A stretch of DNA of 32,000 bases from Flavobacteriaceae bacterium (GCA_965224465.1 OZ245049.1:2460001-2492000), one strand, 5' to 3'; positions 5,455-22,261 are shown, numbered from the stretch's first letter. Translations and numbers: made by a program. The notes: generated from the letters alone by a model not told the origin.

Positions 5455-7302
5455 ATGTGTGGAATTACTGGATATATAGGGTTTAGGCAAGCCTACCCTA
5501 TAGTTATAAAAGGATTACAACGTCTCGAATACCGTGGGTATGACAGTGCAGGAGTTATCACATACGATGCAAATGTACACGTGACAAAAACAAAAGGAAA
5601 AGTAAGTGACCTTATGGAGGTTGCCAAAAACGCAAACACCAATGGTACCTTAGGTTTTGGACATACACGATGGGCTACCCATGGTGTTCCAAACGACATC
5701 AATTCTCATCCACACGTATCTAACTCTGGAAACATAGTTATTGTACACAATGGAATTATTGAAAATTACGACAGTATTAAGCAAGAACTTAGTACTCGTG
5801 GCTATACTTTTCAAAGTGATACAGATACGGAAGTACTCGTAAATTTAATCGAAGACACCAAAAAACAAAACAACTGTTTATTGGGGCAGGCCGTTCAAAT
5901 TGCATTAACCAATGTAATAGGCGCTTATGCCATTGCTGTATTTGACAAGGAAAAACCAGACGAAATAATTATTGCTCGTTTAGGAAGTCCTATTGCTATT
6001 GGTATTGGAGAGAACAACAAAGAATTCTTTTTCGCCTCAGATGCTTCACCTTTTGTTGAATACACAAAAAACGTGATTTATTTAGACGATGAAGAACTTG
6101 CCATTTTAAAAGTAGGTCGTGAAATCAAAATACGCAAAATAAATGATGACAGCCCCGTAACTCCATACATTCAAGAACTTCAATTAAACTTAGAAGAAAT
6201 TGAAAAGGGAGGTTATGAACATTTCATGCTCAAAGAAATTCACGAGCAACCAGACGCCATACGAGATACCTTAAGAGGTAGATTGTTAGCAGATGAAGGA
6301 CTTATAAAAATGGGAAGTGTAGACGATCATTTGGACAAATTTACCAATGCAAACCGCATAATTATTGTGGCATGTGGTACCTCTTGGCATGCAGGACTCG
6401 TAGCTGAATATCTCTTTGAAGATTTTGCTCGCGTCCCTGTAGAAGTAGAATACGCCTCTGAATTTAGATACAGAAATCCTATTATTACTCGCAATGATAT
6501 TGTAATTGCCATTTCTCAATCTGGAGAAACAGCAGACACATTAGCCGCTATTAAATTAGCAAAATCAAAAGGAGCATTTGTATTTGGAGTCTGTAATGTA
6601 GTAGGTTCGTCTATTGCTAGAGAAACCGATTCTGGCGCGTACACACACGCTGGCCCTGAGATAGGAGTCGCATCTACCAAAGCCTTTACTACCCAAATGA
6701 CTGTGCTAGCATTGATGGCATTGAAAGTAGGGAAAGCAAAAGGAAACCTGTCACGTTCTATGTATCATTCTTACCTACAAGAATTAAGCTTAATCCCATC
6801 TAAGGTAGCAGAATTATTAAAGCAAAACGACATTATTAAAGAAATAGCTGCCATCTACAAAGACTCGCCTAATTGCTTGTATTTAGGACGTGGTTATAAT
6901 TTCCCAGTAGCCCTTGAAGGCGCTTTGAAATTGAAGGAAATTTCTTATATCCATGCAGAAGGATATCCCGCTGCAGAGATGAAACATGGACCTATTGCTT
7001 TGATTGATGAAAACATGCCTGTGGTAGTAATTGCTACACGTAAAGGACATTATGAAAAAGTAGTAAGCAATATCCAAGAAATAAAATCTAGAGAAGGAAA
7101 AATAATTGCCATTGTTACCAAAGGTGATACTACTGTAAAAGCAATTGCGGATCATGTTATTGAAATCCCAGAAACAGAAGAAGCTTTTACTCCATTTTTA
7201 ACAACAATTCCATTGCAGTTATTGTCTTACCACATTGCAGTAATGAGAGGTTGTAATGTAGATCAACCACGTAACTTAGCAAAATCCGTGACTGTAGAAT
7301 AA
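5455..7302 (+). CDS. glmS: Glutamine--fructose-6-phosphate aminotransferase (isomerizing)
   Basis: 615 aa starting MCGITGY (N-terminal nucleophile Cys), with two SIS domains (GTSWHA, SQSGETADT) and the C-terminal KSVTVE. Confidence 0.97.
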   Translation: MCGITGYIGFRQAYPIVIKGLQRLEYRGYDSAGVITYDANVHVTKTKGKVSDLMEVAKNANTNGTLGFGHTRWATHGVPNDINSHPHVSNSGNIVIVHNGIIENYDSIKQELSTRGYTFQSDTDTEVLVNLIEDTKKQNNCLLGQAVQIALTNVIGAYAIAVFDKEKPDEIIIARLGSPIAIGIGENNKEFFFASDASPFVEYTKNVIYLDDEELAILKVGREIKIRKINDDSPVTPYIQELQLNLEEIEKGGYEHFMLKEIHEQPDAIRDTLRGRLLADEGLIKMGSVDDHLDKFTNANRIIIVACGTSWHAGLVAEYLFEDFARVPVEVEYASEFRYRNPIITRNDIVIAISQSGETADTLAAIKLAKSKGAFVFGVCNVVGSSIARETDSGAYTHAGPEIGVASTKAFTTQMTVLALMALKVGKAKGNLSRSMYHSYLQELSLIPSKVAELLKQNDIIKEIAAIYKDSPNCLYLGRGYNFPVALEGALKLKEISYIHAEGYPAAEMKHGPIALIDENMPVVVIATRKGHYEKVVSNIQEIKSREGKIIAIVTKGDTTVKAIADHVIEIPETEEAFTPFLTTIPLQLLSYHIAVMRGCNVDQPRNLAKSVTVE

Positions 7303-8794: not shown

Positions 8795-8860
8795 AAACAC
8801 CCTGAACAGTATCGGTAATATGTACACACCTGAACAGACGCTCTTTTTTCTTAAATATTA

Positions 8861-8890
8861 AACCTCGTTCAAAACATCGAGGTTTTTTTA
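8861..8890 (+). terminator. Rho-independent terminator after the ThrE-family gene
   Basis: AACCTCG-(10 nt loop)-CGAGGTT hairpin followed by a T run. Confidence 0.6.
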
Positions 8891-9306
8891 TTTATTTTTG
8901 CTAAGTAGCATCATTATAATGATTTTTTTATACAAAAAAACCTAAAAACAACTCCCATAACAACAGTCACCCTAACTTTTTTTACGTATTAGAAAGACAC
9001 CTTCTATAATTTTTAATTTAAAAAAATTACAGGTTCAGCGGAAAACCTGCACCGTAACACCTCAAATAAACGCCGATTTTTCCGGTAACAATCCCCTTTT
9101 ATAGCAAAAAAAATAAATTCTTTTTCAAAACTTAGTATTAGCTAGTGACAATTGTAAATTTTTACGTGTATTTTATATGAAAAAACGAGTATTTTAGTTG
9201 CAAAACCCCTGAATAACCATTGCAAAACCAAAAGCAATACCTTAACATAAAGTTATACGCTCAATATCAAATAAAAGAATATCTTCGCCAAAAAAATAAA
9301 AAATAA

Positions 9307-10818
9307 ATGACGATCAGACACTCAAACCAACGATTAATCTATTTATTATCACCCTTATTTTTATTCATAAACTGCGAAAAAGACGAACTCATATTTGAGC
9401 ACAAACTAACAACCACTATAAGTCCAAAAGAAGGAGGAACAGTAACACCTTCTTCGGGAACTTACGAGGCAGATAACACGATAACACTTAAAGCAACTCC
9501 CTCTAAACATTATACTTTTAAGAACTGGAGTGGCAGTGCATCTGGTTCTAAAAATTCCATTTCAATAACACTAAACACAAACAAAAATATTGATGTAATC
9601 TTTGTAAAAAAAGACACTGATAACGATGGTGTCACAGATGATATTGATACATGCCCAAACACTCCCCCTGGAGAAGAGGTAACCAAGTATGGCTGTGCTA
9701 CTTCACAAACAGACACAGACAAAGATGGTGTTATGGACTCGCTAGACAGATGCCCAAACACACCAGAAAAAGAAAAGGCAAACAGCAAAGGATGTTCTAG
9801 TTCACAACTAGATTCTGACGGAGACGGAGTCGCAGACAACATTGATGATTGTCCAAATACCACAAAAGGCATCCCTGTAGATAAAAACGGTTGTACTAGT
9901 AAACAAAAAATACATATACCTGACGTTAATTTTGAGAAAAGGCTAATCGCTTTAGGCTATGACGATGTTTTGGACAACTATGTGTTTTACAAGAACATTA
10001 AAGAGGTATTGTATTTAGATGTATCCGGATTAAATATTAGCAATTTAACAGGCATAGAAGCCTTTGAAAACTTGACAATTTTAAACTGTAAGAAAAACAA
10101 ACTTACCCAACTAAATCTAACTAAAAACATAGCCCTAAAAGAATTATACACACGCAAAAATCAACTCAAAAACCTAAACATAAGTAACAACTCTGAGTTA
10201 GTAAAACTATACTGTTCCAATAATAAATTAGCAAAATTGGATGTAAGTAGCAATACAAAATTGACTCAAATAATGTGTAACAATAACCGATTAACACGCT
10301 TACATTTAAGAAGTAACACAGAATTAAAAGAGTTAATATGTGATTCTAACAAACTCCCCAGTTTAGATTTGAGTAACTGTAATAAATTGGTACGGATTTG
10401 GTGTGGATTTAACCAACTCGAACAATTAAACATACGTAAAAACACACAGCTACGGTATTTAATTTGCGCTAACAATAAAATTACAAGTTTGGATGTAAAA
10501 AGCAATCTTCAATTGTCTGAATTTGCTTGTGGAAACAACCTAATTACCGATCTGAACCTCGTCAACAATACACTCTTATCAGAATTTGCATGTGGACAAA
10601 ATCGAATTAAAAAGTTAGACATACGTAACAACAAACAGTTAAAGCAATTAAGTTGCGGTAAAAACCAACTCACTCGTTTAGATTTAAGTAAGAATCGTCG
10701 ATTAACAGACTTGTTTTGTTCTTACAATAAATTATTTTGTATAAAAGTGGCTCCAAACCACAATTACAGTTCATGGATTAAAGATACTGAGACTATATTT
10801 TCTCTGAATTGTAATTAA
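9307..10818 (+). CDS. Surface lipoprotein with an InlB-B-repeat-like domain, three thrombospondin type-3 Ca-binding repeats and about 11 leucine-rich repeats
   Basis: The lipobox is LFINC. GGTVTPSSGTYEADNTITLKATPSKHYTFKNWSG resembles a Listeria-Bacteroides repeat. DTDNDGVTDDIDTCPNTP, DTDKDGVMDSLDRCPNTP and DSDGDGVADNIDDCPNTT are TSP3 repeats. About 11 units of 21 aa follow the pattern LxxLxCxxNxLxxLDLxxNxx. Confidence 0.8.
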   Translation: MTIRHSNQRLIYLLSPLFLFINCEKDELIFEHKLTTTISPKEGGTVTPSSGTYEADNTITLKATPSKHYTFKNWSGSASGSKNSISITLNTNKNIDVIFVKKDTDNDGVTDDIDTCPNTPPGEEVTKYGCATSQTDTDKDGVMDSLDRCPNTPEKEKANSKGCSSSQLDSDGDGVADNIDDCPNTTKGIPVDKNGCTSKQKIHIPDVNFEKRLIALGYDDVLDNYVFYKNIKEVLYLDVSGLNISNLTGIEAFENLTILNCKKNKLTQLNLTKNIALKELYTRKNQLKNLNISNNSELVKLYCSNNKLAKLDVSSNTKLTQIMCNNNRLTRLHLRSNTELKELICDSNKLPSLDLSNCNKLVRIWCGFNQLEQLNIRKNTQLRYLICANNKITSLDVKSNLQLSEFACGNNLITDLNLVNNTLLSEFACGQNRIKKLDIRNNKQLKQLSCGKNQLTRLDLSKNRRLTDLFCSYNKLFCIKVAPNHNYSSWIKDTETIFSLNCN

Positions 10819-11424
10819 AAATTATGGATCGACCATAGAAAAACATGCTTAAAAATACGCTTCGGTAAATTCTCCTGTAAAATAAGCCTTAAATTTACAG
10901 AAGGATCATCCCGTTTGCGGTGTATTCAAAAGTTTTACTTCCTAGAGATATAAAACAGCTTAATAAAACACAATCTGCATCAACATCGTGTTTTAAAGGT
11001 TCTTTCCAATACAGATAATTCGCTTAAATACATCCATTAAGTACTCATAACCGTTGTGTCATAAGCGAAGCGTATCCATAGCAATTATTGTTTATTTTGC
11101 TAGGTTAGAAGAATACTACTTAATTAGAGCCTTCCTTAATTCATGTTTTTAAAAAGCAGAAAAATAGGAGCCCACCCTTTAGGAGAACCATATAAACACA
11201 AACACCTAGAATTAAAACACAAAAAACACGTGCGTATAACTATTTTTTGTACATTTGATTACTGCTTATAGATATATACGTCTTAATAATTAAAATGACC
11301 CAATGCTACATCGTAGGTTAAATGGATATGACATCTTGTTTAGCACTGCTACTGTGAGAATATGGGATTTTAAGTAATTTAACGCACTCAAGCGGTAGAA
11401 CATAACATAAAAAACAAATAAATT

Positions 11425-11907
11425 ATGCCAGAAAGATCCGTAGCAACAGTAGGCAGCATGCATGTGTGTCCAATGTGTTCAGGAACTGTTCCTCATGTAG
11501 GAGGGACTATTATTCAAGGAGAGAGCAATGTTTTAGTAAATGGTAATCCCGTTGCAACTATGGGGAGTATATGTACTTGTATAGGTGCTATCGGCACAGT
11601 TATACAAGGTTCGCCCACTGTTTTTGTTAATGGTAAGCCTATTGCTTGTGTTGGTGATATGACCCAGCACGGAGGGATAATTACCTCAGGCTCTCCGAAT
11701 GTTTTTATAGGTAGCTCGCCGGAAACCCCTACAAAAACAAATAACCTTCAAGAGATAGCGTTTCCTGAAATCTCCTTAGTTAATAGGATACAAGCAGTGG
11801 TTACAGGTAATAATGATGCATTAAAAGAAGCAGCACAGAATATGGAGAAAATAAAAAATGAGGCTGATAAAAATGGTTTTTTAAACGCTATAGATTTTAG
11901 TTTTTAA
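11425..11907 (+). CDS. PAAR domain protein (spike-tip protein of a contractile injection system) with a C-terminal extension of about 60 aa
   Basis: The sequence VGSMHVCPMCSGTVPHVGGTIIQGESNVLVNGNPVATMGSICTC...GSPTVFVNGKPIACVGDMTQHGGIITSGSPNVFIG shows three PAAR-type repeats with the classic GDxxxHGGxIxxGSxxVxI ending. The stop codon is 2 nt before the next start. Confidence 0.85.
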   Translation: MPERSVATVGSMHVCPMCSGTVPHVGGTIIQGESNVLVNGNPVATMGSICTCIGAIGTVIQGSPTVFVNGKPIACVGDMTQHGGIITSGSPNVFIGSSPETPTKTNNLQEIAFPEISLVNRIQAVVTGNNDALKEAAQNMEKIKNEADKNGFLNAIDFSF

Positions 11908-11909
11908 CG

Positions 11910-14900
11910 ATGAAAGAAATTACACATCCTGAAAAAGGAAAAAAGGTAGGCGCTAAAGTTAGTTCTACAATTTTCGGCACATACCCAATAGGAAAATTTA
12001 ACACTTGGCACGGAGGCACACACTTAGAGAGTATGTCTGAATTAGTAGCCATTGCAGACGGTAGAATAATAGCCTATCAAATTACAGACAATTACGAATC
12101 CGTAGCTTTTGAAGGGAAAGACCAAGTGTATTCAAAATGCTTTGTACTAATACAGCACGACTACGTAATTAAAAAGACAGAGGACGATACTAAAGAAGGT
12201 AAACCTATTCGGTTTTATTCTTTTTATCAACATCTAATGCCTTTATCTAAAATAAAAAAAACAAATAAATTCCCTTACTTTTTCTGTGATAAAAAGCACG
12301 TTATCAAAGCTAAAGAACAGGTAAAGGGTGCTAAAATGTACAGGTTTATAAAGGGTAAAAAAACCGAAAAAACATTTATCCCTAATGGCACAACCATTAA
12401 GTTAAACAAAACGGATAAAGTCACAAAAAATAAACATTCCTATACTAGAGTAACTTCTGTTGATGGTATTGCTCTTACAAATAAACACTATATAAGTGAA
12501 AGTTTTATTGGTACAGATCTCATTAAAAAATATAGTTATGTACGTACAGAATATTATACAGACCCTAATAATGATACCAAAGGAGGGCGTATTCGTGAAA
12601 AGGCAAGTGGTACATCTAAAATTGTAAATCTAATCCCCTACGGAAAAGTGGTTGCTATAGATATGTCTACAAAAGATAAATCTTGGATAAAATTAGCCGA
12701 TGGTAGCGGGTATACTTTCAAAAAAAGTTTAGAATATAAAAGTGTATTAAATAATAAAAAAATCACAAAAGATAAAGTTATAGGTTGTGATATCCCTGTA
12801 AAAGCAAACCAAACCATTGGACATGCAGGAAAAAACGGCACTTTAGGATTCGAAAATTACAGAAACTGTCATTTTGAAATTTTTACGGATGCAAGTGATA
12901 GCGACCTAAAATATTTTATAAATAATAAAGCAAAAAACAGTTTTAAAACGCCTCGCTTTTTTGAAATAGAAAACGGAGCTAAGTTAAAAGCTAATATTGT
13001 TAAATCGCTTGATATCAGCGCTAATACCCCTATAAAAGTACTCAAGGTAAAAGATTGTTCGATAAAAGTAGAAATAATTGAAATTATGGCTACCATTGCG
13101 TATTCTGATGTAATTGATAATAATGACAAAGCGAGTAGTTACAACCTAAAAGCGGATACTTTTGACACGGTTAATACCGCTTTTAATAATACATTAAAAG
13201 TAACAGATAAACTCTATTATATAGAGCGTTGCGATGAAAGCGGTAAAAAAATATCTAATAAAGAAAACGACCAACGTATAAAGGATAAACTTGCCCAATA
13301 CAGAAATGTAAAGTTTAACCCTAAACATATAAAACAACTATTTTGGGTAAAGGAAACCGATATTGACGTATGTACAGCCGGTGAAAAAGGGAAAATTACA
13401 ACTGCTTTAACCCAAGTGTATATTTATGAGCCTAAAGATGAAACCGAAGATTTAACCATAAACGAAGCATTGCTTATAGAAAATAAAGGATTAAAAACCT
13501 ATACCAATAAAAGCACTAAAGAAAAATGGTATGCTATTACATGTAGCTATATAGAAAACAATAAATTGGTTAGTAAAAAAGGATGGATAAGTGAAAATAA
13601 CAGTAAGTTTACTGCAAAAAACCCACATAATTGGAAAGAGTTTGGTTTTGAAATTATAGATGCAGGAAAAGATTATGTATATGAGGTAGAAGGCTATAAT
13701 AGAGCAGAAAACAGTGGTGATTTTATTAACAAAATGTGGGAATTAATAGATACCGACGGCAACAAACGTATTAATAGAGTGGAGATAATTAATGCATTTT
13801 CAGATAGTAAAAAACTAAATAAAATAGCTAAATTTATCTGCAAGCACAAGAGTGAATGGTCGTACACTATTGATAAAATAAAAGAAGAAGCCGAGCAGTT
13901 TTATAAAATAGGAATAGACGAAGCTACAGGTATAAAAAAAGATAAATTAACCGAAAAAAAAGATAAACTTATTGATGTGTTTGTATCTAAATTAGAAAAT
14001 TTATTGTGTTGGAAAGAGATACAAAATGCCAACTATACACCACCTGTAATAAAACAGAAAACGAAAACAAAAGATACGTTTAGGTTTTTCCCTAAAGATT
14101 TTCAAGAAATTATTGATGATAAAGAACCGCAAAATTTATTTATAGAAGAAATGATGCAAATTATGGATGAAAAGAAGAAAGAAGAAGAAAAACCAAAACG
14201 TGTAGTGCCTAAAGGTGATGTGTTTCATTATTTTCATCCTATTGCTTTTTTACAGCATATGAAGTTGATTACTGCAACAAATGTTATTTATATTTATTCT
14301 GATGGCACAATTAGTAAATTAGATTTAAAAGGGCTTAACGAAATAACTTATGTCTATGTAAGTTCTAATGGTAAAGAATATAAAATTTGCACTTGTGAAT
14401 TATTAGAAATTGATGAAAGGTTAAAAGGAGTTGCACATGATCAAGCAACAGCTCATGCTGTTAAATCAGGATATGATGCTGGTAATATTGTGAGTTACTC
14501 TCATGCTTCCTCACGTAAAAAATATACATATCCCGATGGGACTATAAGAACTTACGGGAAATATGATGGAGAATTTAGACGAGTTGTTTATAATAAAGGA
14601 GCAAGAAAAACACACATAGTTAAACTTCCTAATGGATTAAATACAAAAGTAAATAATAAATCTGTGAAATTTGCATTTACATCAACAGCAAGAACATATT
14701 GTGGGCCTGAACATTTTGCTTGTTTTATAGGAGCTTTAACAGAAGTAGGTTATGCTGATATTGTTTCAGGAGGAATGTGTGAAGAGGACGGAACATGCTT
14801 TCCTAGTATATCGCACAATAATGGTCAGAGTGTTGATACTAGTTATTTAGATGATGATATTAGAGAACAAAACTTTATAAATGCTATGAATAAATTTGGA

Positions 14901-15011
14901 TTTGATGGTCAGCTTAGAGGTTATGCAAAGAAGAAATTTGATCATACGACTGCTAAATCTCATCACAATTCGCACCTGCATTCAGGGGTGTTAAAACCAA
15001 AATATAAATAG
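11910..15011 (+). CDS. Large polymorphic effector: split LytM/M23-like domain with an SH3b-like insertion, an unknown central region with an EF-hand-like loop, a K/E-rich linker, and a C-terminal LAS-type (HxxGxxxD...HxH) putative peptidoglycan peptidase toxin domain
   Basis: 1033 aa with no signal peptide. The M23-like blocks are WHGGTHLE, VAIADGRIIAY, FYSFYQHL and, about 190 aa later, VKANQTIGHAGKNG and NCHFEIF. GGRIREKASGTSKIVNLIPYGKVVAIDMSTKDKSWIKLADGSGY is SH3b-like. DTDGNKRINRVE is an EF-hand-like loop (13749-13784). The linker is DEKKKEEEKPKR. The C-terminal motifs are SHNNGQSVD (14811-14837) and HLH (14973-14981). Confidence 0.7.
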   Translation: MKEITHPEKGKKVGAKVSSTIFGTYPIGKFNTWHGGTHLESMSELVAIADGRIIAYQITDNYESVAFEGKDQVYSKCFVLIQHDYVIKKTEDDTKEGKPIRFYSFYQHLMPLSKIKKTNKFPYFFCDKKHVIKAKEQVKGAKMYRFIKGKKTEKTFIPNGTTIKLNKTDKVTKNKHSYTRVTSVDGIALTNKHYISESFIGTDLIKKYSYVRTEYYTDPNNDTKGGRIREKASGTSKIVNLIPYGKVVAIDMSTKDKSWIKLADGSGYTFKKSLEYKSVLNNKKITKDKVIGCDIPVKANQTIGHAGKNGTLGFENYRNCHFEIFTDASDSDLKYFINNKAKNSFKTPRFFEIENGAKLKANIVKSLDISANTPIKVLKVKDCSIKVEIIEIMATIAYSDVIDNNDKASSYNLKADTFDTVNTAFNNTLKVTDKLYYIERCDESGKKISNKENDQRIKDKLAQYRNVKFNPKHIKQLFWVKETDIDVCTAGEKGKITTALTQVYIYEPKDETEDLTINEALLIENKGLKTYTNKSTKEKWYAITCSYIENNKLVSKKGWISENNSKFTAKNPHNWKEFGFEIIDAGKDYVYEVEGYNRAENSGDFINKMWELIDTDGNKRINRVEIINAFSDSKKLNKIAKFICKHKSEWSYTIDKIKEEAEQFYKIGIDEATGIKKDKLTEKKDKLIDVFVSKLENLLCWKEIQNANYTPPVIKQKTKTKDTFRFFPKDFQEIIDDKEPQNLFIEEMMQIMDEKKKEEEKPKRVVPKGDVFHYFHPIAFLQHMKLITATNVIYIYSDGTISKLDLKGLNEITYVYVSSNGKEYKICTCELLEIDERLKGVAHDQATAHAVKSGYDAGNIVSYSHASSRKKYTYPDGTIRTYGKYDGEFRRVVYNKGARKTHIVKLPNGLNTKVNNKSVKFAFTSTARTYCGPEHFACFIGALTEVGYADIVSGGMCEEDGTCFPSISHNNGQSVDTSYLDDDIREQNFINAMNKFGFDGQLRGYAKKKFDHTTAKSHHNSHLHSGVLKPKYK

Positions 15012-15013
15012 AA

Positions 15014-15763
15014 ATGTATAAATTAATACAAATATTTTTTGCACTAGGGTTATTGACTAGTTGTCTTGATTCTAAAAATCACAAAGAAAAATTAAAAGAT
15101 AATAATTTAGCAGAAATAAAAGTAGAATTAACAGATAGCACCTCGTTAAGAGTAAAACAATTATCTAATTTCAACTTAAGTCAGTTATCATTAGGAAATG
15201 ATAAGATTACTGATAAAGAGTTTAGAGGCAAAAATAGTTTTTACATTAAAAAAGGAACAGATGTAGAATTAAATAATGAATTTATTTACTCTTCAAAAGG
15301 TGAAATTTTAAAAGATTATTTTCATAACTTTTATAAACCGACAGCTTTATCATCAGTTGAAGAAGATAAATATCCTTTATATGATGATAAAGATTATATT
15401 CAAAAAGTAGGTATTAAATCTTCAGGACTAGAAAATATTATAAAAAATAAAGATGGAGTATACTTATGTGTGTTTTTTGTAAATTTTAATTATGATAAAG
15501 AATATGAGTCTTTTATTAAACCTATCAGGTATTTAGTTTCTTTTGATGAAAATTTAAATATTTTGAATGAATTCACTCTTAGTTTTTTTTATGAAACAGA
15601 AACAAAGAGTTTCATAAAATTATTTTATTTAGATGAAAACTTAAATATTTACACTAATTATTACAGGAACAAAGAGGATAAAGACGGAAATATAAAGGAG
15701 ACCTTTTCAGACTTATATAGGTATACCGTATTGTCTAATGGTACAATTTCAGAGAAGAAATAA
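15014..15763 (+). CDS. Lipoprotein, candidate cognate immunity protein for the 1033-aa effector
   Basis: 249 aa with the lipobox LLTSC. It starts 2 nt after the effector stop. There is no recognisable enzymatic motif. Confidence 0.55.
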   Translation: MYKLIQIFFALGLLTSCLDSKNHKEKLKDNNLAEIKVELTDSTSLRVKQLSNFNLSQLSLGNDKITDKEFRGKNSFYIKKGTDVELNNEFIYSSKGEILKDYFHNFYKPTALSSVEEDKYPLYDDKDYIQKVGIKSSGLENIIKNKDGVYLCVFFVNFNYDKEYESFIKPIRYLVSFDENLNILNEFTLSFFYETETKSFIKLFYLDENLNIYTNYYRNKEDKDGNIKETFSDLYRYTVLSNGTISEKK

Positions 15764-16331
15764 ACCTTACGATTATACACTTCATGAGCATAGAGCTCCA
15801 ACTTTTGGGTATAGAAGAGGCACACCTAGTATAAGGCTACATGCTGCAAGAGATTTATATTATGATGCTGAAGAACCAATTTATGCAATAGCAGATGGTA
15901 CTACAAAAAGAGTTTATGAATTTTATCTCGACACTTATGCTATTGAAGTTGAACATAATTACGAGCACGTCAAAGGACATAAATTGTATGTCCGTTATGG
16001 AGAAGTAAGTAAGAATAATATTTTAGTAAAAGTCGGAGAAGAAGTAAAACAAGGAGACCAAATAGCCGAAATAGGTTTATTATATAGTAAGAAAAAAGAT
16101 AAGTATATTATTCAACCATACCCTGATAAAAGAGGCATGTTGCATTTAGAAATGTACACAGGTGAAGCAAAAGGAAAATTAACTGACAAAACAGTAAAGT
16201 ATACAGATATGCTTTATGCAAAATCAGACAAATACCACAAAGGACGTTCTTTTCAAAGGCGAAAAGATTTATTTGACCCATTACCTTTGTTAAAAATTAT
16301 GTATAACAATTCTAAATCTGATTTTAAATGA
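15738..16331 (+). CDS. Small M23/LytM-like protein without a signal peptide (candidate second effector)
   Basis: 197 aa. LHAARDLY (HxxxD), IYAIADGTT, YAIEVEH, VKVGEEVKQGDQIAEIG and MLHLEMY follow M23 block order. It overlaps the upstream ORF by 26 nt and the downstream ORF by 4 nt (ATGA). Confidence 0.6.
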   Translation: MVQFQRRNKPYDYTLHEHRAPTFGYRRGTPSIRLHAARDLYYDAEEPIYAIADGTTKRVYEFYLDTYAIEVEHNYEHVKGHKLYVRYGEVSKNNILVKVGEEVKQGDQIAEIGLLYSKKKDKYIIQPYPDKRGMLHLEMYTGEAKGKLTDKTVKYTDMLYAKSDKYHKGRSFQRRKDLFDPLPLLKIMYNNSKSDFK

Positions 16332-16891
16332 GAAATATAAAATATTTTTTAGTACTAGTAGTATCCCTTTTTTTTAGTTTGAATTCTTGTATAGAGAAAA
16401 AAACTAATGTTTCTAAATTAACAAATGATACAAAGGCTAATAAAACACCCAAAAAGGAAATAGTAAAGAAAAATAATCCTTTTAAATATATATACAATGT
16501 AGATTTGGTAGGAATGGAAGCTTCTGAAAAAATTAAAGACACTAAGCCTTATGAAAAATATTCTGTTGACTTTACAGCTGCTTGCTATTCTAGTAATCTA
16601 TTGAAAATAAGAATAAACAATGAGATTGTATCAATCTCAAACTATAACGATTCGAGAATTGAACAATCATTTCATATTAGTGATACAAAAATCCAAAATG
16701 ATAGTTTAATAATTGAATCAAATTCTCCAAATTATTTTAAAATAATAATTGTAAAAGTAAAAAATGCTCAGGTTTACTCTTTAGAGTATAAAGGTAATTT
16801 AGAAATAGATGTAAAAATGAGTAAATTTATTTCAAGAGAAACTGACCTTTTTAAATTTGGAGGTATCGATTGTGATGATTTTGGAGGATAA
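16328..16891 (+). CDS. Lipoprotein, candidate immunity protein for the small M23-like protein
   Basis: 187 aa with the lipobox SLNSC. Its start overlaps the stop of the M23-like gene. Confidence 0.5.
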   Translation: MRNIKYFLVLVVSLFFSLNSCIEKKTNVSKLTNDTKANKTPKKEIVKKNNPFKYIYNVDLVGMEASEKIKDTKPYEKYSVDFTAACYSSNLLKIRINNEIVSISNYNDSRIEQSFHISDTKIQNDSLIIESNSPNYFKIIIVKVKNAQVYSLEYKGNLEIDVKMSKFISRETDLFKFGGIDCDDFGG

Positions 16892-16899
16892 GAGCTAGA

Positions 16900-17518
16900 T
16901 TGTGAACAAGATAAAAAAGTAAAGCCACAGTTTAAAAAGCTGTGATATTATGGTTTGTAAATTAAATTTGTTTTTATGAATAACGCTCAATTAAGTAAAT
17001 TATTTAATCCCGATGTTACGGTCTTACTGGACAGGGTAAAAGTGACTGATAAAGATATTAATGTGCATTTACTTTATGCATTGTGTAATGCTGTTAAATG
17101 TTCAATTTCAATAGAAGAGTTTAACCCTTCTATTTATATTGAAGATGTTAATAATCAAATTGCATTTAACAATCAACTAAACATAGAGGCTCCAGAAAGT
17201 ATTAAAGCATCTTTTATAACTACATTTAGGGTAGATTTTATCTATGATGATAATTTAAACAATCATGTATACTGTTTTTTTAAAACGCAACCTTATATCA
17301 CCAATAACGATTGCCCTGTTGAAATCGTTAATTTCAATAAATCCTTATTAGAATTAACACCAAACGATTGCTTACGGTATGTAAATAGTAAATTAAAAGA
17401 ACTCTATCCTAACTTATGGGACGATACATTAAACATTTCTATAAATATAACATTGCATCACTACCAAGCAGCAAAAAACAAGTGGAAAATAATAACACCA
17501 ATATCTGATTAAAAATAA
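16900..17518 (+). repeat. 619-bp direct repeat, copy 1 (contains the 178-aa ORF and 76 bp of its upstream region)
   Basis: Aligns base for base with 21398-22016 at a constant offset of 4498 nt. Only a few substitutions are visible. Confidence 0.9.
16976..17512 (+). CDS. Hypothetical cytoplasmic 178-aa protein, copy 1 of the repeated gene
   Basis: Intact ORF with no signal peptide and no motif I recognise. The paralog at 21474-22010 differs at 4 of 178 residues. Confidence 0.6.
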   Translation: MNNAQLSKLFNPDVTVLLDRVKVTDKDINVHLLYALCNAVKCSISIEEFNPSIYIEDVNNQIAFNNQLNIEAPESIKASFITTFRVDFIYDDNLNNHVYCFFKTQPYITNNDCPVEIVNFNKSLLELTPNDCLRYVNSKLKELYPNLWDDTLNISINITLHHYQAAKNKWKIITPISD

Positions 17519-17532
17519 TATTAAGAAGTATT

Positions 17533-17666
17533 TCAACAAATTATATAGGAAAGCTTTAGATATATACTTTAATAAAAAGGGTATACGAACAAGGAAGACC
17601 TATGGTGTTGAAAAACACATTCAAATGTGGACTTCTAAATAGTCGGATTTATTAGTTGAATTTAAG
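17533..17666 (+). repeat. 134-bp junction repeat, copy 1
   Basis: The stretch TCAACAAATTATATAG...TTATTAGTTGAATTTAAG recurs at 18754-18888 with scattered substitutions and one 1-nt indel. Confidence 0.85.
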
Positions 17667-17746
17667 CATGTCTAAATTCTATGATTTTAAAATATACACT
17701 AAAGACATACCTCAAAGTAAAAGATCTAACTCTTAATAAAGATAAA

Positions 17747-18643
17747 ATGAAACCTTATTATTTAATTATATTAATTTTCTGTTCATGTAAAGAAAAGTCA
17801 GAAAATAAAATTAACGAAAGTCATACAATAATAACTACTCTAGAGGTGCATGAAGAAACCTCTTCTATAGTGATTCCTAAAAGATCTCAAGAAAAAATTG
17901 GTTTAATAAATGATACTGATGGTTATACGAACGCACGTAAAGAACCTTCATCATCTTCTGAAATTTTATTTAAAATATTAGAAGATGAATATTTTATGTA
18001 TACTTCTATAAAAGAATCAAATTGGTCTGAAATACAAACTCTTGATAATAAGGTCGCTTATGTACATAATAGTAGAATAAAAAAAGTAAATCCAAATAAT
18101 GTGATTACTTTTTTTAGTGAATATTATGATGAGGATGAAGAAAAAGACAAGCTTATAAAAAATATTATAACAATAAAATCACTGGATGAATCAAAAGCTT
18201 TTTCTATAAAGGAATTTCCATATTCTAAATTAAAGATTGTTAGTATATCCAATGATACTCTAATTTTATTAAGTGATGACAAAAAAATATCTATTGAAGT
18301 TATAGCAGGTCTTTTTGAAAAAGAGAAGCATTCAATTGAATACAATGAAAATAATTACGTCAACAAAATTGATTCGAAAAATATTTATGGAAATGACCAA
18401 GTACCAGTTAGAGAAATTAAGCAAATAATAATTCAGAAGGATGACATTAAATTTGAGTTAGACACAAAAGTTTTTAGTAATTTATATGAACCAAATTTTG
18501 AACATCTTAATGTTTATATAAAAGGAAATAATCAATTAATTATGTCTATGACAAATGGACATGGAGCAATAAATTCTTATAAATCAATTTTAATATTTGA
18601 TAATTCAAATCTATTAAAACACATAACCTATATTCCTTTTTAA
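17747..18643 (+). CDS. Lipoprotein with an SH3-like N-terminal domain (start taken at the internal ATG that gives a lipoprotein signal peptide)
   Basis: MKPYYLIILIFCSCKEK provides the lipobox. GLINDTDGYTNARKEPSSSSEILFKILEDEYF...WSEIQTLDNKVAYVHNSRI is SH3b-like. The track ORF starts at 17681, but 17747 gives a canonical signal peptide. Confidence 0.55.
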   Translation: MKPYYLIILIFCSCKEKSENKINESHTIITTLEVHEETSSIVIPKRSQEKIGLINDTDGYTNARKEPSSSSEILFKILEDEYFMYTSIKESNWSEIQTLDNKVAYVHNSRIKKVNPNNVITFFSEYYDEDEEKDKLIKNIITIKSLDESKAFSIKEFPYSKLKIVSISNDTLILLSDDKKISIEVIAGLFEKEKHSIEYNENNYVNKIDSKNIYGNDQVPVREIKQIIIQKDDIKFELDTKVFSNLYEPNFEHLNVYIKGNNQLIMSMTNGHGAINSYKSILIFDNSNLLKHITYIPF

Positions 18644-18753
18644 GTTTAGTATGGAATCCAATGTTATTGAAAAAGTTATACATACTGTTTAAAAAAAACG
18701 CATCCTTATAATACCAATATCCAATTAAAAACAATTTAAATAACGATAGCATG

Positions 18754-18888
18754 TCAACAAATTATATAGCAAATCTTTAGATATACACTTTAACAAAAAT
18801 AGTATACGAACAAGGCAAACCTATGGTATTGAAAAAAGACATTCAAATGTTGACTTCTAAATAGTCGCATTTATTAGTTGAATTTAAG
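18754..18888 (+). repeat. 134-bp junction repeat, copy 2
   Basis: Homologous to 17533-17666. It lies immediately upstream of the orphan toxin module. Confidence 0.85.
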
Positions 18889-18932
18889 ATGGGAAATATG
18901 GAAGAAAAGAAGAAGAAAAACCAAAACGCGTA

Positions 18933-19808
18933 GTGCCTAAAGGTGATGTGTTTCATTATTTTCATCCTATTGCTTTTTTACAGCATATGAAGTTGATTAC
19001 TGTAACAAATGTTATTTATATTTATTCTGATGGGACAATTAGCAAATTAGATTTAAAAGGGCTTAGCGAAATAACTTATGTCTATGTAAGTTCTAATGGT
19101 AAAGAATATAAAATTTGCACTTGTGAATTATTAGAAATTGATGAAAGGTTAAAAGGAGTTGCACATGGGCAAAAAATAGCTCATACCATCGAGTCAGGTT
19201 ATGATTCTAGTAATATTGTTACTTATGCACATGCTTCTTCTCGAAAAAAATATACTTATCCAGATGGCACTATAAGAACATATGGTCCTTACGATGGAGG
19301 TTTCAGAAGAGTTGTTTATAAAAAAGGCGCAGAAAAAAAACGAATTATTAAAATGCCTAAAAAAATTGGTGTTAAAATTGATAATAATAAAGTAATTGCA
19401 TTTAAGTTTACAGGCACAGCAAGAACTTATTGTGACCCAGAAGTTTTCGCTGGATTTATAGGTGTCTTAGGTGAAACAGGATATCCATCTACAGATATAA
19501 TATCGACAGGTATGTGTGAAGAAGACGGAACATGCTTTCCTAGTATTACCCACAATAATGGGCAAAGTATAGATATTAAATACCTTAAGAAAAATGGTGG
19601 TATAACAAGTTACATGTACAATAAGGATTTTGATAAAGTTAGAATGCAAAAAATTGTTGATGGATTTGTTAAATTTAATTTTAAATATTTAGCGGCATGG
19701 AAAGATTCTGAAGGTAAGCTGATGACTAATACAAAGAAAGTATCTCATCACCATCATCATTTTCATGCAGGTAATTTAAATAAAACAAAAATAAGAAGAA
19801 ATGATTAA
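18933..19808 (+). CDS. Orphan C-terminal toxin module, paralog of effector residues 766-1033, with no ATG start (probably silent unless recombined)
   Basis: The first 235 nt are nearly identical to 14205-14439. After that the module diverges but keeps THNNGQSID and HHHHHFH (the HxxGxxxD and HxH motifs). The frame opens only after a TAA at 18885-18887. It has no in-frame ATG, and the first possible start is the GTG at 18933. Confidence 0.7.
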   Translation: MPKGDVFHYFHPIAFLQHMKLITVTNVIYIYSDGTISKLDLKGLSEITYVYVSSNGKEYKICTCELLEIDERLKGVAHGQKIAHTIESGYDSSNIVTYAHASSRKKYTYPDGTIRTYGPYDGGFRRVVYKKGAEKKRIIKMPKKIGVKIDNNKVIAFKFTGTARTYCDPEVFAGFIGVLGETGYPSTDIISTGMCEEDGTCFPSITHNNGQSIDIKYLKKNGGITSYMYNKDFDKVRMQKIVDGFVKFNFKYLAAWKDSEGKLMTNTKKVSHHHHHFHAGNLNKTKIRRND

Positions 19809-20475
19809 AATAATATTTAAATTTTTGATAGTGTTTTTTTTGATAAGTTCATGTAAGACGAAAAAAGAGGAACTTAAAAAATCAGCTCAAATTTCATCTA
19901 ATAATTACGAAAAAGATAAAGTACCTTATTTAAAACTTCCAATAGATTATTCTTTTGAAAGAAACAAAAAAAATATTAAAGGAGATGTATTTTATAATCA
20001 ACGAGTAAAAATAAACACAAAAATAAATAATAATTTCAGTTTTATTAGTGAAAAGAATAATCTAAATATTGAAAATGAAATATGTAAAAAGTATAAAGAA
20101 AAATGCAATTCATATTTTACAGAATTTGATTATTCTAAAACGTACAAAATTCAAAATGATTTTGATTTTGATCTTTATTTAATTACTTCCAAATTCAGTT
20201 ATTACTTAAATTTAATATCAATTAAAGACGATAAAGTCATAGATTTATTGAATGTTTATTTAAATTACGTTGATTATGAAGGTCAAGAATGTATCTATCG
20301 AAACTTCTCTGTTGACAAGGATCTTAATGTTTCTATTTTTAATTATATCTATTTTGAATCTACAGGAGAAGTTGAAGAAGACAATAATGAAGCTGATTCC
20401 ATAAACATATATCCACCTGCTACTTTAAAACAAGAATTGTATACATTAACAAAAGAAGGATTATTCAGCAGATGA
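19801..20475 (+). CDS. Lipoprotein, candidate immunity protein for the orphan toxin module
   Basis: 224 aa with the lipobox LISSC. Its start overlaps the orphan toxin stop by 8 nt. Confidence 0.55.
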   Translation: MIKIIFKFLIVFFLISSCKTKKEELKKSAQISSNNYEKDKVPYLKLPIDYSFERNKKNIKGDVFYNQRVKINTKINNNFSFISEKNNLNIENEICKKYKEKCNSYFTEFDYSKTYKIQNDFDFDLYLITSKFSYYLNLISIKDDKVIDLLNVYLNYVDYEGQECIYRNFSVDKDLNVSIFNYIYFESTGEVEEDNNEADSINIYPPATLKQELYTLTKEGLFSR

Positions 20476-20490
20476 TTTTACGTAAAATGA

Positions 20491-20759
20491 TTAAAAGCAG
20501 AAGAAGAAGAAGAAGAAGAAGAAGAAGAAGACTGGGGTATACCGTCAGTAAATAATAATTTAAAACAGGTATGACTCATGGTTTTGGTTGGAAAAGAGGA
20601 CACTTTGGATTAGAACCAGAAAAATTTAACAATGGAGGTTCAGGGGCGACAACTTGGGTTCATTTAGATGTTAGGGAATTTGGGAAAGTAAACCTTAATG
20701 AAAAATTATTCGTTAAAAAACAAAGCTTAATAATTGGAAAAAAACTAACAGAATATTAA
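20491..20759 (+). pseudogene. Degraded third orphan toxin remnant: poly-Glu linker, then a frameshifted fragment ending in a WVHLDVRE motif (M15A-like C-terminus)
   Basis: The linker frame (20491-20574) has no start codon and ends at the TGA at 20572-20574. The 62-aa ORF at 20571-20759 is in a different frame and reads GFGWKRGHFG...GGSGATTWVHLDVRE. That resembles the C-terminal fVHvDvR block of peptidase M15A/DUF882. The upstream HxxxxxxD block is missing. Confidence 0.4.
20500..20529 (+). repeat. (GAA)10 trinucleotide microsatellite
   Basis: Ten perfect GAA units counted in the sequence. They lie in an open frame reading LKA(E)10DWGIPSVNNNLKQV followed by a stop. Confidence 0.95.
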
Positions 20760-20763
20760 AACT

Positions 20764-21369
20764 ATGAAAATGAAAATTGTTTTATTATTTTTTGTCTTAA
20801 TTTTTGGAATATCTTGTAAAGACAAAAACAAAAATAACACATCAATAAAATTAATTACTAGCACTAATAGTCTCATTGAGAACGCTGTAACTGAGAAGTC
20901 AGGACAAAAAAACAATTGTTTAAAGAGTGATGTTAAACCTCTGAAATTGCCAATTGATGGAGGAGAAAACCTTATGTCTTTTACAATTGAAAATGATATA
21001 GAATTACAAGTGTTAAAATGTGATGTAAGTATAATAAAATCTAAATTATGCAATACTGATTTTATAAGTTATTATTCTCTGCCTAATAAAAATGATTTAA
21101 ATCCAATAATTATAGCAGATGAATATGGAGATAATAATAATAGTTACACTTTAGTTATTCATAAAGAGGATAAAATAACCGATTTTGTCCTACTATATAA
21201 TTCTTGGATTGAAATGTCAGAAAACCCAAAAAAAGAAATTACAGATTTTAAAATATCTAAGGAATATGAAATAATTATTTCAAAACAAGAATATAAAAAT
21301 AATATCCAAACAAAACAAGAATCAATTAATTACCAAATTGATAAAAACGGGAAACTATTAATTCAATAG
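20764..21369 (+). CDS. Lipoprotein, candidate orphan immunity protein
   Basis: 201 aa with the lipobox FGISC. It shares the LKLPID motif and a C-terminal Y-x-[IL]-x-K-x-G-x-L type ending with the 19801-20475 lipoprotein. Confidence 0.5.
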   Translation: MKMKIVLLFFVLIFGISCKDKNKNNTSIKLITSTNSLIENAVTEKSGQKNNCLKSDVKPLKLPIDGGENLMSFTIENDIELQVLKCDVSIIKSKLCNTDFISYYSLPNKNDLNPIIIADEYGDNNNSYTLVIHKEDKITDFVLLYNSWIEMSENPKKEITDFKISKEYEIIISKQEYKNNIQTKQESINYQIDKNGKLLIQ

Positions 21370-21397
21370 TCACCTCCAGCTGTCGCAATCGTCTCGC

Positions 21398-22016
21398 TTG
21401 TGAACAAGATAAAAAAGTAAAGCCACAGTTTAAAAAGCTGTGATATTATGGTTTGTAAATTAAATTTGTTTTTATGAATAACGCTCAATTAAGTAAATTA
21501 TTTAATCCCGATGTTACGGTCTTACTGGACAGGGTAAAAGTGACTGATAAAGATATTAATGTGCATTTACTTTATGCATTGTGTAATGCTGTTAAATGTT
21601 CAATTTCAATAGAAGAGTTTAACCCTTCTATTTATATTGAAGATGTTAATAATCAAATTGCATTTAACAATCAACTAAACATAGAGGCTCCAGAAAGTAT
21701 AAAAGCATCTTTTACAACTACATTTAGGGTAGATTTTATCTATGATGATAATTTAAACAATCATGTATACTGTTTTTTTAAAACGCAACCTTATAACACC
21801 AATAACGATTGCCCTGTTGAAATCGTTAATTTTAATAAATCCTTATTAGAATTAACACCAAACGATTGCTTACGGTATGTAAATAGTAAATTAAAAGAAC
21901 TCTATCCTAGCTTATGGGACGATACATTAAATATTTCTATAAATATAACATTGCATCACTACCAAGCAGCAAAAAACAAGTGGAAAATAATAACACCAAT
22001 GTCTGATTAAAAATAA
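21398..22016 (+). repeat. 619-bp direct repeat, copy 2
   Basis: Matches 16900-17518 at a constant offset of 4498 nt. Confidence 0.9.
21474..22010 (+). CDS. Hypothetical cytoplasmic 178-aa protein, copy 2 of the repeated gene
   Basis: Intact ORF. It differs from copy 1 by I81T, I108N, N146S and I176M. Confidence 0.6.
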   Translation: MNNAQLSKLFNPDVTVLLDRVKVTDKDINVHLLYALCNAVKCSISIEEFNPSIYIEDVNNQIAFNNQLNIEAPESIKASFTTTFRVDFIYDDNLNNHVYCFFKTQPYNTNNDCPVEIVNFNKSLLELTPNDCLRYVNSKLKELYPSLWDDTLNISINITLHHYQAAKNKWKIITPMSD

Positions 22017-22134
22017 GCTAAATTCAATAGTAACCTCCCGCTGTCGCAAGCGTCTCGCTTGAGAACAAGATAAAGAAACGAAGCCTCAGTTTAAAAAGCT
22101 GTGATATTATGGTTTGTAAATTAAATTTGGCTTT

Positions 22135-22245
22135 ATGAATAACACTCAATTAAGTAAATTATTTAATCCCGATGTTACGGTATTACTGGACAAGGTAAAA
22201 GTGTCTGATAAAGACATCAATGTGCATTTACTTTATAGGTTATAG
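22135..22245 (+). pseudogene. Truncated third copy of the repeated 178-aa gene (36 codons)
   Basis: MNNTQLSKLFNPDVTVLLDKVKVSDKDINVHLLY is followed by RL and a stop. Homology to copies 1 and 2 starts in the upstream region near 22021 and ends abruptly at 22236, 26 nt from the next gene. Confidence 0.8.
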
Positions 22246-22261
22246 GACTATAATAACACTA

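Follow-up and report, generated by a model that had tools for sequence, protein, structure and literature searches.

A sharp step in sequence identity separates a toxin gene from a second, downstream copy of part of it in a 32,000-nt stretch of a Flavobacteriaceae genome (GCA_965224465.1, OZ245049.1:2460001-2492000), which is called the window in the following and whose positions are counted from its first nucleotide. One copy belongs to the main effector gene, which directly follows a gene for a PAAR protein, and the other heads a toxin module, the orphan, that is shorter at its 5' end. The locus is best explained, with a probability of roughly 0.8, as a polymorphic type VI secretion system (T6SS) effector locus with orphan cassettes, in which the step would be the edge of a recombination event. 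The near-identical segment shared by the two genes is referred to as the handle, the two parts of the toxin domain as subdomains A and B in the main gene and as A' and B' in the orphan. The elements concerned are the following:

11425..11907, plus strand: gene for a PAAR protein of 160 amino acids (Pfam PAAR_motif, E = 1.8e-29)
11910..15011, plus strand: main effector gene, 1033 amino acids, with the carrier at residues 1-787, subdomain A at 788-843 and subdomain B at 844-1033
14178..14439, plus strand: first copy of the handle (K/E linker, junction motif and subdomain A), 98.1% identical to 18906-19167
14193..14270, plus strand: junction motif PKRVVPKGDVFHYFHPIAFLQHMKLI, the end of the carrier, kept in all 13 carriers retrieved
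14443..15760, plus strand: cassette 1, subdomain B and a putative immunity lipoprotein of 249 amino acids (15014-15763), 92.7% identical at the nucleotide level to Cellulophaga sp. L1A9
18888..19808, plus strand: orphan toxin module, an open frame with the second copy of the handle at 18906-19167, B' at 19168-19805 and a GTG codon at 18933
19164..20459, plus strand: cassette 2, B' and a putative immunity lipoprotein of 224 amino acids (19801-20475), 83.6% identical at the nucleotide level to Cellulophaga baltica

In global and codon-guided alignments, 257 of 262 bases are the same between 14178-14439 and 18906-19167, which lie at an offset of 4728 nt. This agrees with the initial annotation, which had described near-identity from the K/E linker to position 14439 and about four substitutions past the VPKGD codons; indeed, four of the five mismatches (14201, 14275, 14306, 14315 and 14338) are located there. 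The last 101 nt of the handle (14339-14439) are free of mismatches, and another identical run covers 73 nt. Immediately past GTTGCACATG, which ends at 14439 and after which a fall in identity had been described, the codon alignment contains 185 mismatches in 569 aligned nucleotides, corresponding to 67.5% identity; a local blastn comparison of the main gene and the orphan gives 82.6% over the entire 678-nt match, with the handle counted in. A change-point scan, for which the position was not preset, found its optimum at 14439|14440 (5/262 versus 185/569 mismatches, Fisher p = 1e-28), and the observed statistic was attained in 0 of 300 permutations. The two genes thus differ by a sharp step rather than by uniform divergence, the pattern that the initial annotation had named as speaking against its reading. 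Synonymous divergence (dS, Nei-Gojobori) is 0.06 in the handle and 0.93 downstream of the step, where the ratio of nonsynonymous to synonymous divergence (dN/dS) is 0.36, and protein identity is 96% between A and A' and 57-59% between B and B' (~68% at the nucleotide level). Since the step is visible at synonymous sites, protein conservation does not explain it. The handle pair is one of several direct repeats in the window.

The handle joins 31 codons from the end of the carrier (14178-14270) to the first 56 of the toxin domain, which form subdomain A (14271-14438). The step hence coincides with the A|B linker, 56 codons into the toxin domain. The orphan retains the 31 carrier codons including the junction motif with 98% nucleotide identity, and it keeps every residue that is invariant in the toxin family (THNNGQSID, HHHHHFH). 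Its frame opens at 18888, after the stop codon TAA at 18885-18887. The initial annotation stated that the orphan lacks its own ATG, which holds in so far as no in-frame ATG occurs before 18987; however, there is an in-frame GTG at 18933, which is the annotated gene start. The K/E linker of the orphan is 7 nt shorter than that of the main gene, and the homologous methionine codon is out of frame. Two nearby ATG codons, 18889 and 18898, belong to the +1 frame, which ends at a TAG at 18931-18933; the stop codon of this upstream reading frame in the orphan leader shares one base with the GTG at 18933. The Bacteroidetes -7 motif (TAnnTTTG) has candidate occurrences before the PAAR gene and before the open reading frames (ORFs) of a repeat named X178 (see below) and none before the orphan, according to a scan that is weak evidence. 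The orphan is followed by a different lipoprotein gene, as had been proposed: 19801-20475 has no detectable similarity to 15014-15763. The start of this ORF overlaps the stop codon of the orphan toxin.

The carrier belongs to a family whose members end in exchangeable toxins. The effector gene starts 2 nt after the end of the PAAR gene (11907), and its 1033-amino acid product has no match in Pfam (to E = 5) or NCBIfam, so that the carrier lacks a model in both. No RHS_repeat, RHS or TEN_YD-shell domain of Pfam was found in it even at E = 5, and neither were the Pfam domains of two-partner secretion proteins and haemagglutinin repeats. Proteins of 946-1539 amino acids share 27-34% identity with the carrier; they stem from named species of Aquimarina and Cellulophaga, a metagenome bin labelled Opitutaceae and other sources, and their C-termini are mutually unrelated (CHAP, M23 plus lysozyme, SH3 and others). 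In 13 of these proteins, homology to the carrier stops at residues 787-793. The junction motif, P.R..P....V.HFHPIAF..QMK.I, is present in 13/13 carriers and is preceded by a linker rich in K/E or P/T, and the sequences that follow it have nothing in common across the 13 proteins. Nothing specific on the motif string or on Aquimarina T6SS effectors emerged from the searchable literature. The order PAAR gene, carrier effector gene also occurs, directly after VgrG, in Cellulophaga sp. L1A9 (CP047027; locus L001), in Cellulophaga baltica (CP009887; L013) and in the T6SS loci of two further genomes (L006 and L007). In all four, a T6SS-iii cluster (TssN, TssO, ClpV, TssE) contains or adjoins the carrier effector.

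A comparison of L006 and L007 illustrates how toxins may be replaced in this family. Both loci are 99.8% identical up to nt 12447, directly after ..HHFHPIGFIRQMRL; beyond this position, the toxins (M23 plus lysozyme versus CHAP) and the immunity genes are unrelated, and further downstream identity is back at 97.5%. The pair represents a clean allelic replacement of toxin and immunity gene at the motif. Together with the 13 carriers, it shows that the motif demarcates the junction between the constant carrier and variable toxins. Orphans that are headed by a 3' fragment of the carrier, and in which identity is lost exactly at the motif, were found in three places. The orphan handle spans 243 nt with 92% identity in L008/L009, where it is followed by an M23 toxin rather than one of the A/B type, 352 nt with 94% identity in C. 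baltica L013 and 360 nt with 87% identity in L1A9 L001. The orphan in the window is therefore one case of a recurring design, and toxin replacement in the family takes place at a shared segment, the 3' end of the carrier. In the window, the old and the new toxin are members of one family, and homology therefore runs on through A, so that the tract ends at the A|B linker. In L008 (2140-2382) and L009 (1-135), which are JGI metagenome contigs from two independent samples, an in-frame TAA splits an A/B-type toxin gene from the carrier part. The downstream orphan handle has CAA (Gln) at this position, and the TAA is either a nonsense mutation or the mark of a truly split gene.

Both B-type cassettes of the window have close relatives in another genus. 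Cassette 1 (14443-15760) matches an orphan pair in L1A9 (L001:10010-11334) with 92.7% nucleotide identity (dS 0.33 in B, 0.16 in the immunity gene), and cassette 2 (19164-20459) matches an orphan pair in C. baltica (L013:9812-11107) with 83.6% nucleotide identity. Both similarities start no more than ~17 nt away from the step, with unrelated sequence on the left, and the lipoprotein genes travel along with their B domains into the Cellulophaga loci. At the protein level, B is 91% identical to P0020 of L1A9 and 76% to P0016, B' is an outgroup to all of them (47-58%), and A and A' are each 58-62% identical to other members of the family; the relationships of A and B are hence incongruent. The PAAR protein and the carrier are ~46% and ~29% identical to their Cellulophaga counterparts. 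GlmS, encoded at 5455-7302, is a singleton at 90% clustering, as are other housekeeping proteins. Its relatives are a protein from a metagenome-assembled genome (92%) and, as the nearest named ones, those of Urechidicola and Lutibacter (81-83%), which places the genome in the Flavobacteriaceae and not in Aquimarina or Cellulophaga; no Cellulophaga sequence is among the best 120 GlmS matches, each with an identity of 80% or more. Given this distance of GlmS to Cellulophaga, the identity of the cassettes is far above the genome background. Cassettes of B and immunity gene have thus moved between genera and between carrier contexts. The incongruence, the boundaries of the cassettes and the genome background identify the step as a recombination junction.

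Three B-type junctions lie within ~17 nt of each other near the A|B linker: at ~14436 for C. baltica, at 14439|14440 between main gene and orphan and at ~14452 for L1A9. Their left partners are all different (L013:9803-9815; L001:10001-10025). The clustering could be due to selection at a domain boundary, to partly shared ancestry of the Cellulophaga junctions or to a hotspot. A two-tier exchange, in which whole toxins are replaced after HFHPIAF..QMKLI and a smaller cassette of B and immunity gene is exchanged at the A|B linker by means of a hotspot or a dedicated mechanism, is conceivable, albeit unlikely. The B of L1A9 continues in frame from the first seven codons (MSRKHKS) of an ORF start. 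The same ORF start heads a 556-amino acid orphan in C. baltica, where the frame of B' is intact over 217 codons, without a start codon and in a frame other than that of the upstream ORF.

The toxin domain comprises ~245 amino acids (residues 788-1033) and is widespread: 424 representative clusters at 50% identity were retrieved, 259 of them at E < 1e-10. In multi-domain matches, it is C-terminal, and its N-terminal partners are LysM, DUF4280/PAAR-like domains and the carrier described here. The residues S966, H969, G972, D976, H1019, H1022 and H1024 are invariant in 56-66 diverse representatives (HxNGxSxD ... HxxHLH), and CELLEIDERLKG is nearly invariant across the family. H969-x6-D976 and H1022-x-H1024, together with H1019, are candidate zinc ligands and match the pattern of LAS peptidases. 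An AlphaFold2 model based on an alignment of 36 sequences reached a mean predicted local distance difference test score (pLDDT) of 94.9; it superseded a first model based on seven sequences (pLDDT 63), whose fold matches were meaningless. The best fold matches of the model in the PDB are the LAS-fold N-domains of Shh, Ihh and Dhh; they are weak (probability 0.5-0.8, E 0.07-0.3, TM score ~0.4) and span just the C-terminal ~130 residues, the beta-rich N-terminal half (A and the first part of B) being without a match. Searches of the toxin domain against Pfam, including Peptidase_M15*, VanY and M23, against NCBIfam and, by sequence, against the PDB gave no match. The toxin may attack peptidoglycan. 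All five putative immunity genes encode lipoproteins with a lipobox, which is LTSC in the 249-amino acid protein, and this fits a cell wall toxin that acts in the periplasm. ORFs of putative immunity lipoproteins abut or overlap the stop codons of both toxins (15014 and 19801).

According to the proposed mechanism, the PAAR gene is followed by a 1033-amino acid cargo effector with a conserved carrier up to ..HFHPIAF..QMKLI, which is fused to a wall hydrolase-like toxin domain. The latter would consist of a beta-rich subdomain A and a subdomain B resembling LAS-type zinc peptidases, and the next gene would encode a periplasmic immunity lipoprotein. Downstream of it, displaced or spare modules would form an array, among them the orphan with its 31 carrier codons, A, a divergent B' and its own immunity gene. 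The near-identity over 262 nt stems from recent homologous recombination, either a crossover during installation of a cassette or gene conversion, and the step at 14439|14440 is the edge of this event, which coincides with the 5' boundary of the circulating cassettes of B and immunity gene. In the last event, the main gene may have converted the orphan, or a crossover may have occurred when B was acquired. Crude distance ratios point weakly to A being native in the B clade, with the orphan having received a copy of it. With identical runs of 101 and 73 nt, the repeat is long enough for RecA-dependent recombination, and the handle is predicted to be still able to mediate it, thereby switching the type of toxin and immunity. 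A RecA-dependent crossover in the 262-nt repeat would delete 4,728 bp and put B' and its lipoprotein gene behind the carrier.

The array is part of an inserted island, which contains further toxin and lipoprotein modules and copies of the X178 repeat:

8796..22259, no strand: inserted island of ~13.5 kb with the whole array of PAAR gene, effector and orphans
9307-10818: LRR/TSP3 lipoprotein of 503 amino acids (Flg_new/InlB-B-repeat, thrombospondin type 3 and leucine-rich repeats), at the island's left end and preceding the PAAR gene
15738..16891, plus strand: orphan M23 toxin domain without a handle, 197 amino acids (15738-16331; Peptidase_M23, E = 2e-8), and a lipoprotein of 187 amino acids (16328-16891)
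16900..17666, plus strand: X178 copy a (ORF 16976-17512 and 3' spacer), 98.9% identical to 21398-22016 and 97.4% to L005
17681..18643, plus strand: orphan SH3 lipoprotein (Pfam SH3_3), likely of the immunity type
18708..18891, plus strand: remnant of the X178 3' end with spacer, abutting the orphan, 86% identical to 17492-17670 and 85% to L005
20764..21369, plus strand: further orphan lipoprotein of 201 amino acids with the lipobox GISC and a weak match to DUF4969
21288..22236, plus strand: X178 copy b (21288-22016) and partial copy c (22021-22236), at the right end of the island

The island is inserted between the convergent genes thrE and DUF5929/AlbA_2, which are 7 nt apart in the related genomes L010, L011 and L012 (nucleotide identity of the flanks 74-79%). 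Its GC content is 29.1%, compared to 34-35% in the flanks. A search for marks of integration revealed neither a tRNA nor an integrase ORF nor a convincing target-site duplication. With the C-terminal toxin regions of two carrier proteins, P0012 and P0002, the orphan M23 domain shares 34-38% identity; it has neither a junction motif nor a handle, and it starts before the first immunity gene has ended. The SH3 lipoprotein is 34% identical to the product of the gene after the main effector of L1A9. X178 is a repeat of ~0.9 kb, which consists of a 178-amino acid ORF and a 3' spacer and is present in 2.4 copies of 92-99% identity in the island; a Bacteroidetes -7-like TAAATTTG is located just 5' of its ATG. 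It also occurs with 97-98.6% identity in the ENA contig L005 (9171-10099), in an unrelated context beside Bro-N and HTH_38 genes. X178 may be mobile, or it may serve as a cassette separator or recombination substrate. The X178 repeat pair has a dS of 0.03, and the order in which these repeats enclose the array is that of the handles. This low value, like that of the handle, is consistent with recent duplication or homogenisation, and the X178 repeats could equally mediate deletions.

Several observations weigh against the proposed recombining T6SS effector locus. The step lies inside the toxin domain and not at the canonical junction, so that the picture of a handle formed by the constant region is incomplete. 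The toxin-domain swap by recombination that the initial annotation had proposed is supported by the cassette relatives, the incongruence and the family loci. A fusion of main gene and orphan, or the corresponding deletion product, is not on record in reads or strains; a scan of JGI metagenomes with the handle gave no match, and collections contain no close strain, the housekeeping proteins being singletons at 90%. A scan of genome contigs retrieved only three distant loci with other carriers (LysM or DUF4280-linked). Furthermore, the 32-kb window contains no T6SS core gene, and delivery by a T6SS in this genome is suggested only by synteny in other genomes. Assignment of the toxin to the LAS peptidases rests on the motifs and on weak fold matches at E ~0.1 and a TM score of ~0.4, with no match in Pfam, in NCBIfam or, by sequence, in the PDB. 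Finally, the orphan may not be silent, as the public annotation contains a 291-amino acid gene that starts at GTG 18933.

This last point leads to the alternative to be taken seriously, namely that the orphan is an independently translated effector, which starts at GTG 18933 or ATG 18987 and for which the near-identity would be an incidental conversion tract without a role in switching. Its ORF is intact, all invariant residues are kept, the leader is A-rich, and the toxin family includes proteins of ~260-300 amino acids that consist of A and B only; moreover, the B-only ORF of L1A9 has its own ATG. On the other hand, an earlier in-frame ATG is absent, the homologous methionine is shifted out of frame by the 7-nt linker difference, the 31 carrier codons and the motif are retained as in orphans of four other loci, and a -7-like promoter motif is lacking upstream, unlike for the neighbouring X178 ORFs. 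Such an effector would also lack the PAAR, VgrG or carrier part by which it could be loaded onto the secretion machinery. This alternative is considered improbable, and expression of the orphan from GTG 18933 would leave the conclusion on recombination as it is; the "silent cassette" would then become a "second effector gene".

An old tandem duplication without later recombination, in which the 5' part was held by purifying selection while the toxin/immunity part diversified, would be compatible with the conservation of subdomain A and the junction motif at the protein level throughout the family, including the nearly invariant CELLEIDERLKG, and with an array that contains two pairs of near-identical direct repeats, handle and X178, in the same order. 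However, the dS of the handle is 15-fold lower than that of the downstream part (0.06 versus 0.93), which is beyond the reach of selection on the protein; this contrast ruled out purifying selection as the cause of the step. In addition, B and B' are each nearer to a protein from another genus than to one another, and A and B differ in their relationships, which makes an undisturbed duplication very improbable. Least credible of all is an artefact of assembly or collapse of a repetitive toxin locus. Repeats of 0.26-0.6 kb with 98-99% identity can mislead short-read assemblers; however, the two copies differ at five positions and in their flanks, both reading frames are intact, the source sequence is replicon-sized (5.24 Mb), and independent genomes have the same architecture. 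Recombination at the handle of a polymorphic effector locus is therefore preferred as the origin of the step.

The initial annotation had likened the layout to the orphan cassettes of Rhs, CdiA and MafB, in which a conserved segment serves as a handle. This likeness is supported, as loci of the carrier family have the same design. In Salmonella Typhimurium LT2, recombination fuses an orphan toxin to the delivery part of the main rhs gene (PMC3967940, PMC3150448). Like Rhs main/orphan loci, the locus in the window consists of a full toxin gene, an immunity gene and a 5'-truncated toxin fragment with its own immunity gene, and the fragment has part of the conserved region in common with the main gene; the Rhs fragment lacks signals for translation initiation and export. 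Unlike Rhs, there are no RHS/YD repeats (no Pfam match) and no PxxxxDPxGL motif, and the ~790-amino acid carrier ends with HFHPIAF..QMKLI. Moreover, the step is found inside the toxin domain instead of at the core/tip junction, and switching, which has been seen in Salmonella, is here a prediction. In CdiA-CT/CdiI systems, the VENN peptide marks the junction of constant and variable regions and is kept in orphan modules, and pairs of the C-terminal toxin region (CT) and its immunity protein are exchanged between strains and species (PMC3150448). The locus described here resembles these systems in its short conserved motif at the junction, which is retained in orphans, and in the exchange of pairs across strains and species. 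It differs from them in the T6SS/PAAR-linked route, which replaces two-partner secretion, and in the motif, which is HFHPIAF..QMKLI and not VENN. CdiA-CTs are bipartite, with one subdomain for entry and one for toxicity. The A|B split is reminiscent of this organisation, though nothing marks A as an entry domain.

In Vibrio cholerae, acquired T6SS effector-immunity modules are added by homologous recombination, older immunity genes and 3' remnants of effectors are left downstream, and modules from different strains and species closely resemble each other (PMC5361080). The array in the window is comparable in that modules are added and older ones lie downstream. Unlike the V. cholerae arrays, it belongs to the flavobacterial T6SS-iii lineage, the orphan keeps a complete toxin domain and a handle, exchange takes place between genera, and the island is apart from any T6SS core gene in the window. 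The MafB/MafI polymorphic toxins of Neisseria have alternative C-terminal cassettes (review: PMC4436062). The array of alternative C-termini with immunity genes downstream of a main gene is shared with MafB, but DUF1020 is absent here, and the secretion route and the motif are others. In maf loci, promoter-less alternative toxin C-termini and immunity genes are arrayed 3' of the expressed gene, and DUF1020 is the N-terminal domain of MafB. With regard to the toxin itself, the pattern H-x6-D ... H-x-x-H-x-H is shared with LAS zinc peptidases (lysostaphin, D-Ala-D-Ala carboxypeptidase and the Sonic hedgehog N-domain; MEROPS M15/M74-like), and reads HNNGQSVD ... HNSHLH here, invariant across the 56-66 representatives of the family. 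In contrast to these peptidases, no hidden Markov model of Pfam M15, VanY or M23 matches, and the weak fold match covers the C-terminal part alone.

Recombination of toxin modules at a shared handle is an already familiar way for bacteria to vary their weapons. The locus in the window would extend the logic of main gene, orphan and handle to a cargo effector of the flavobacterial T6SS, and it documents near-identical toxin-immunity cassettes that are common to different genera of marine Flavobacteriaceae. It also adds parts for which Pfam and NCBIfam have no model, i.e., the previously undescribed ~790-amino acid carrier, a sharply conserved junction motif that behaves like VENN or DPxGL and a widespread, likewise undescribed toxin domain with LAS motifs. 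Toxin switching is a testable prediction, as it would produce a 4.7-kb deletion that fuses the carrier to B'. Taken together, the locus appears to work like the main/orphan systems of Rhs, CdiA and MafB, yet it belongs to neither the Rhs nor the CdiA family.

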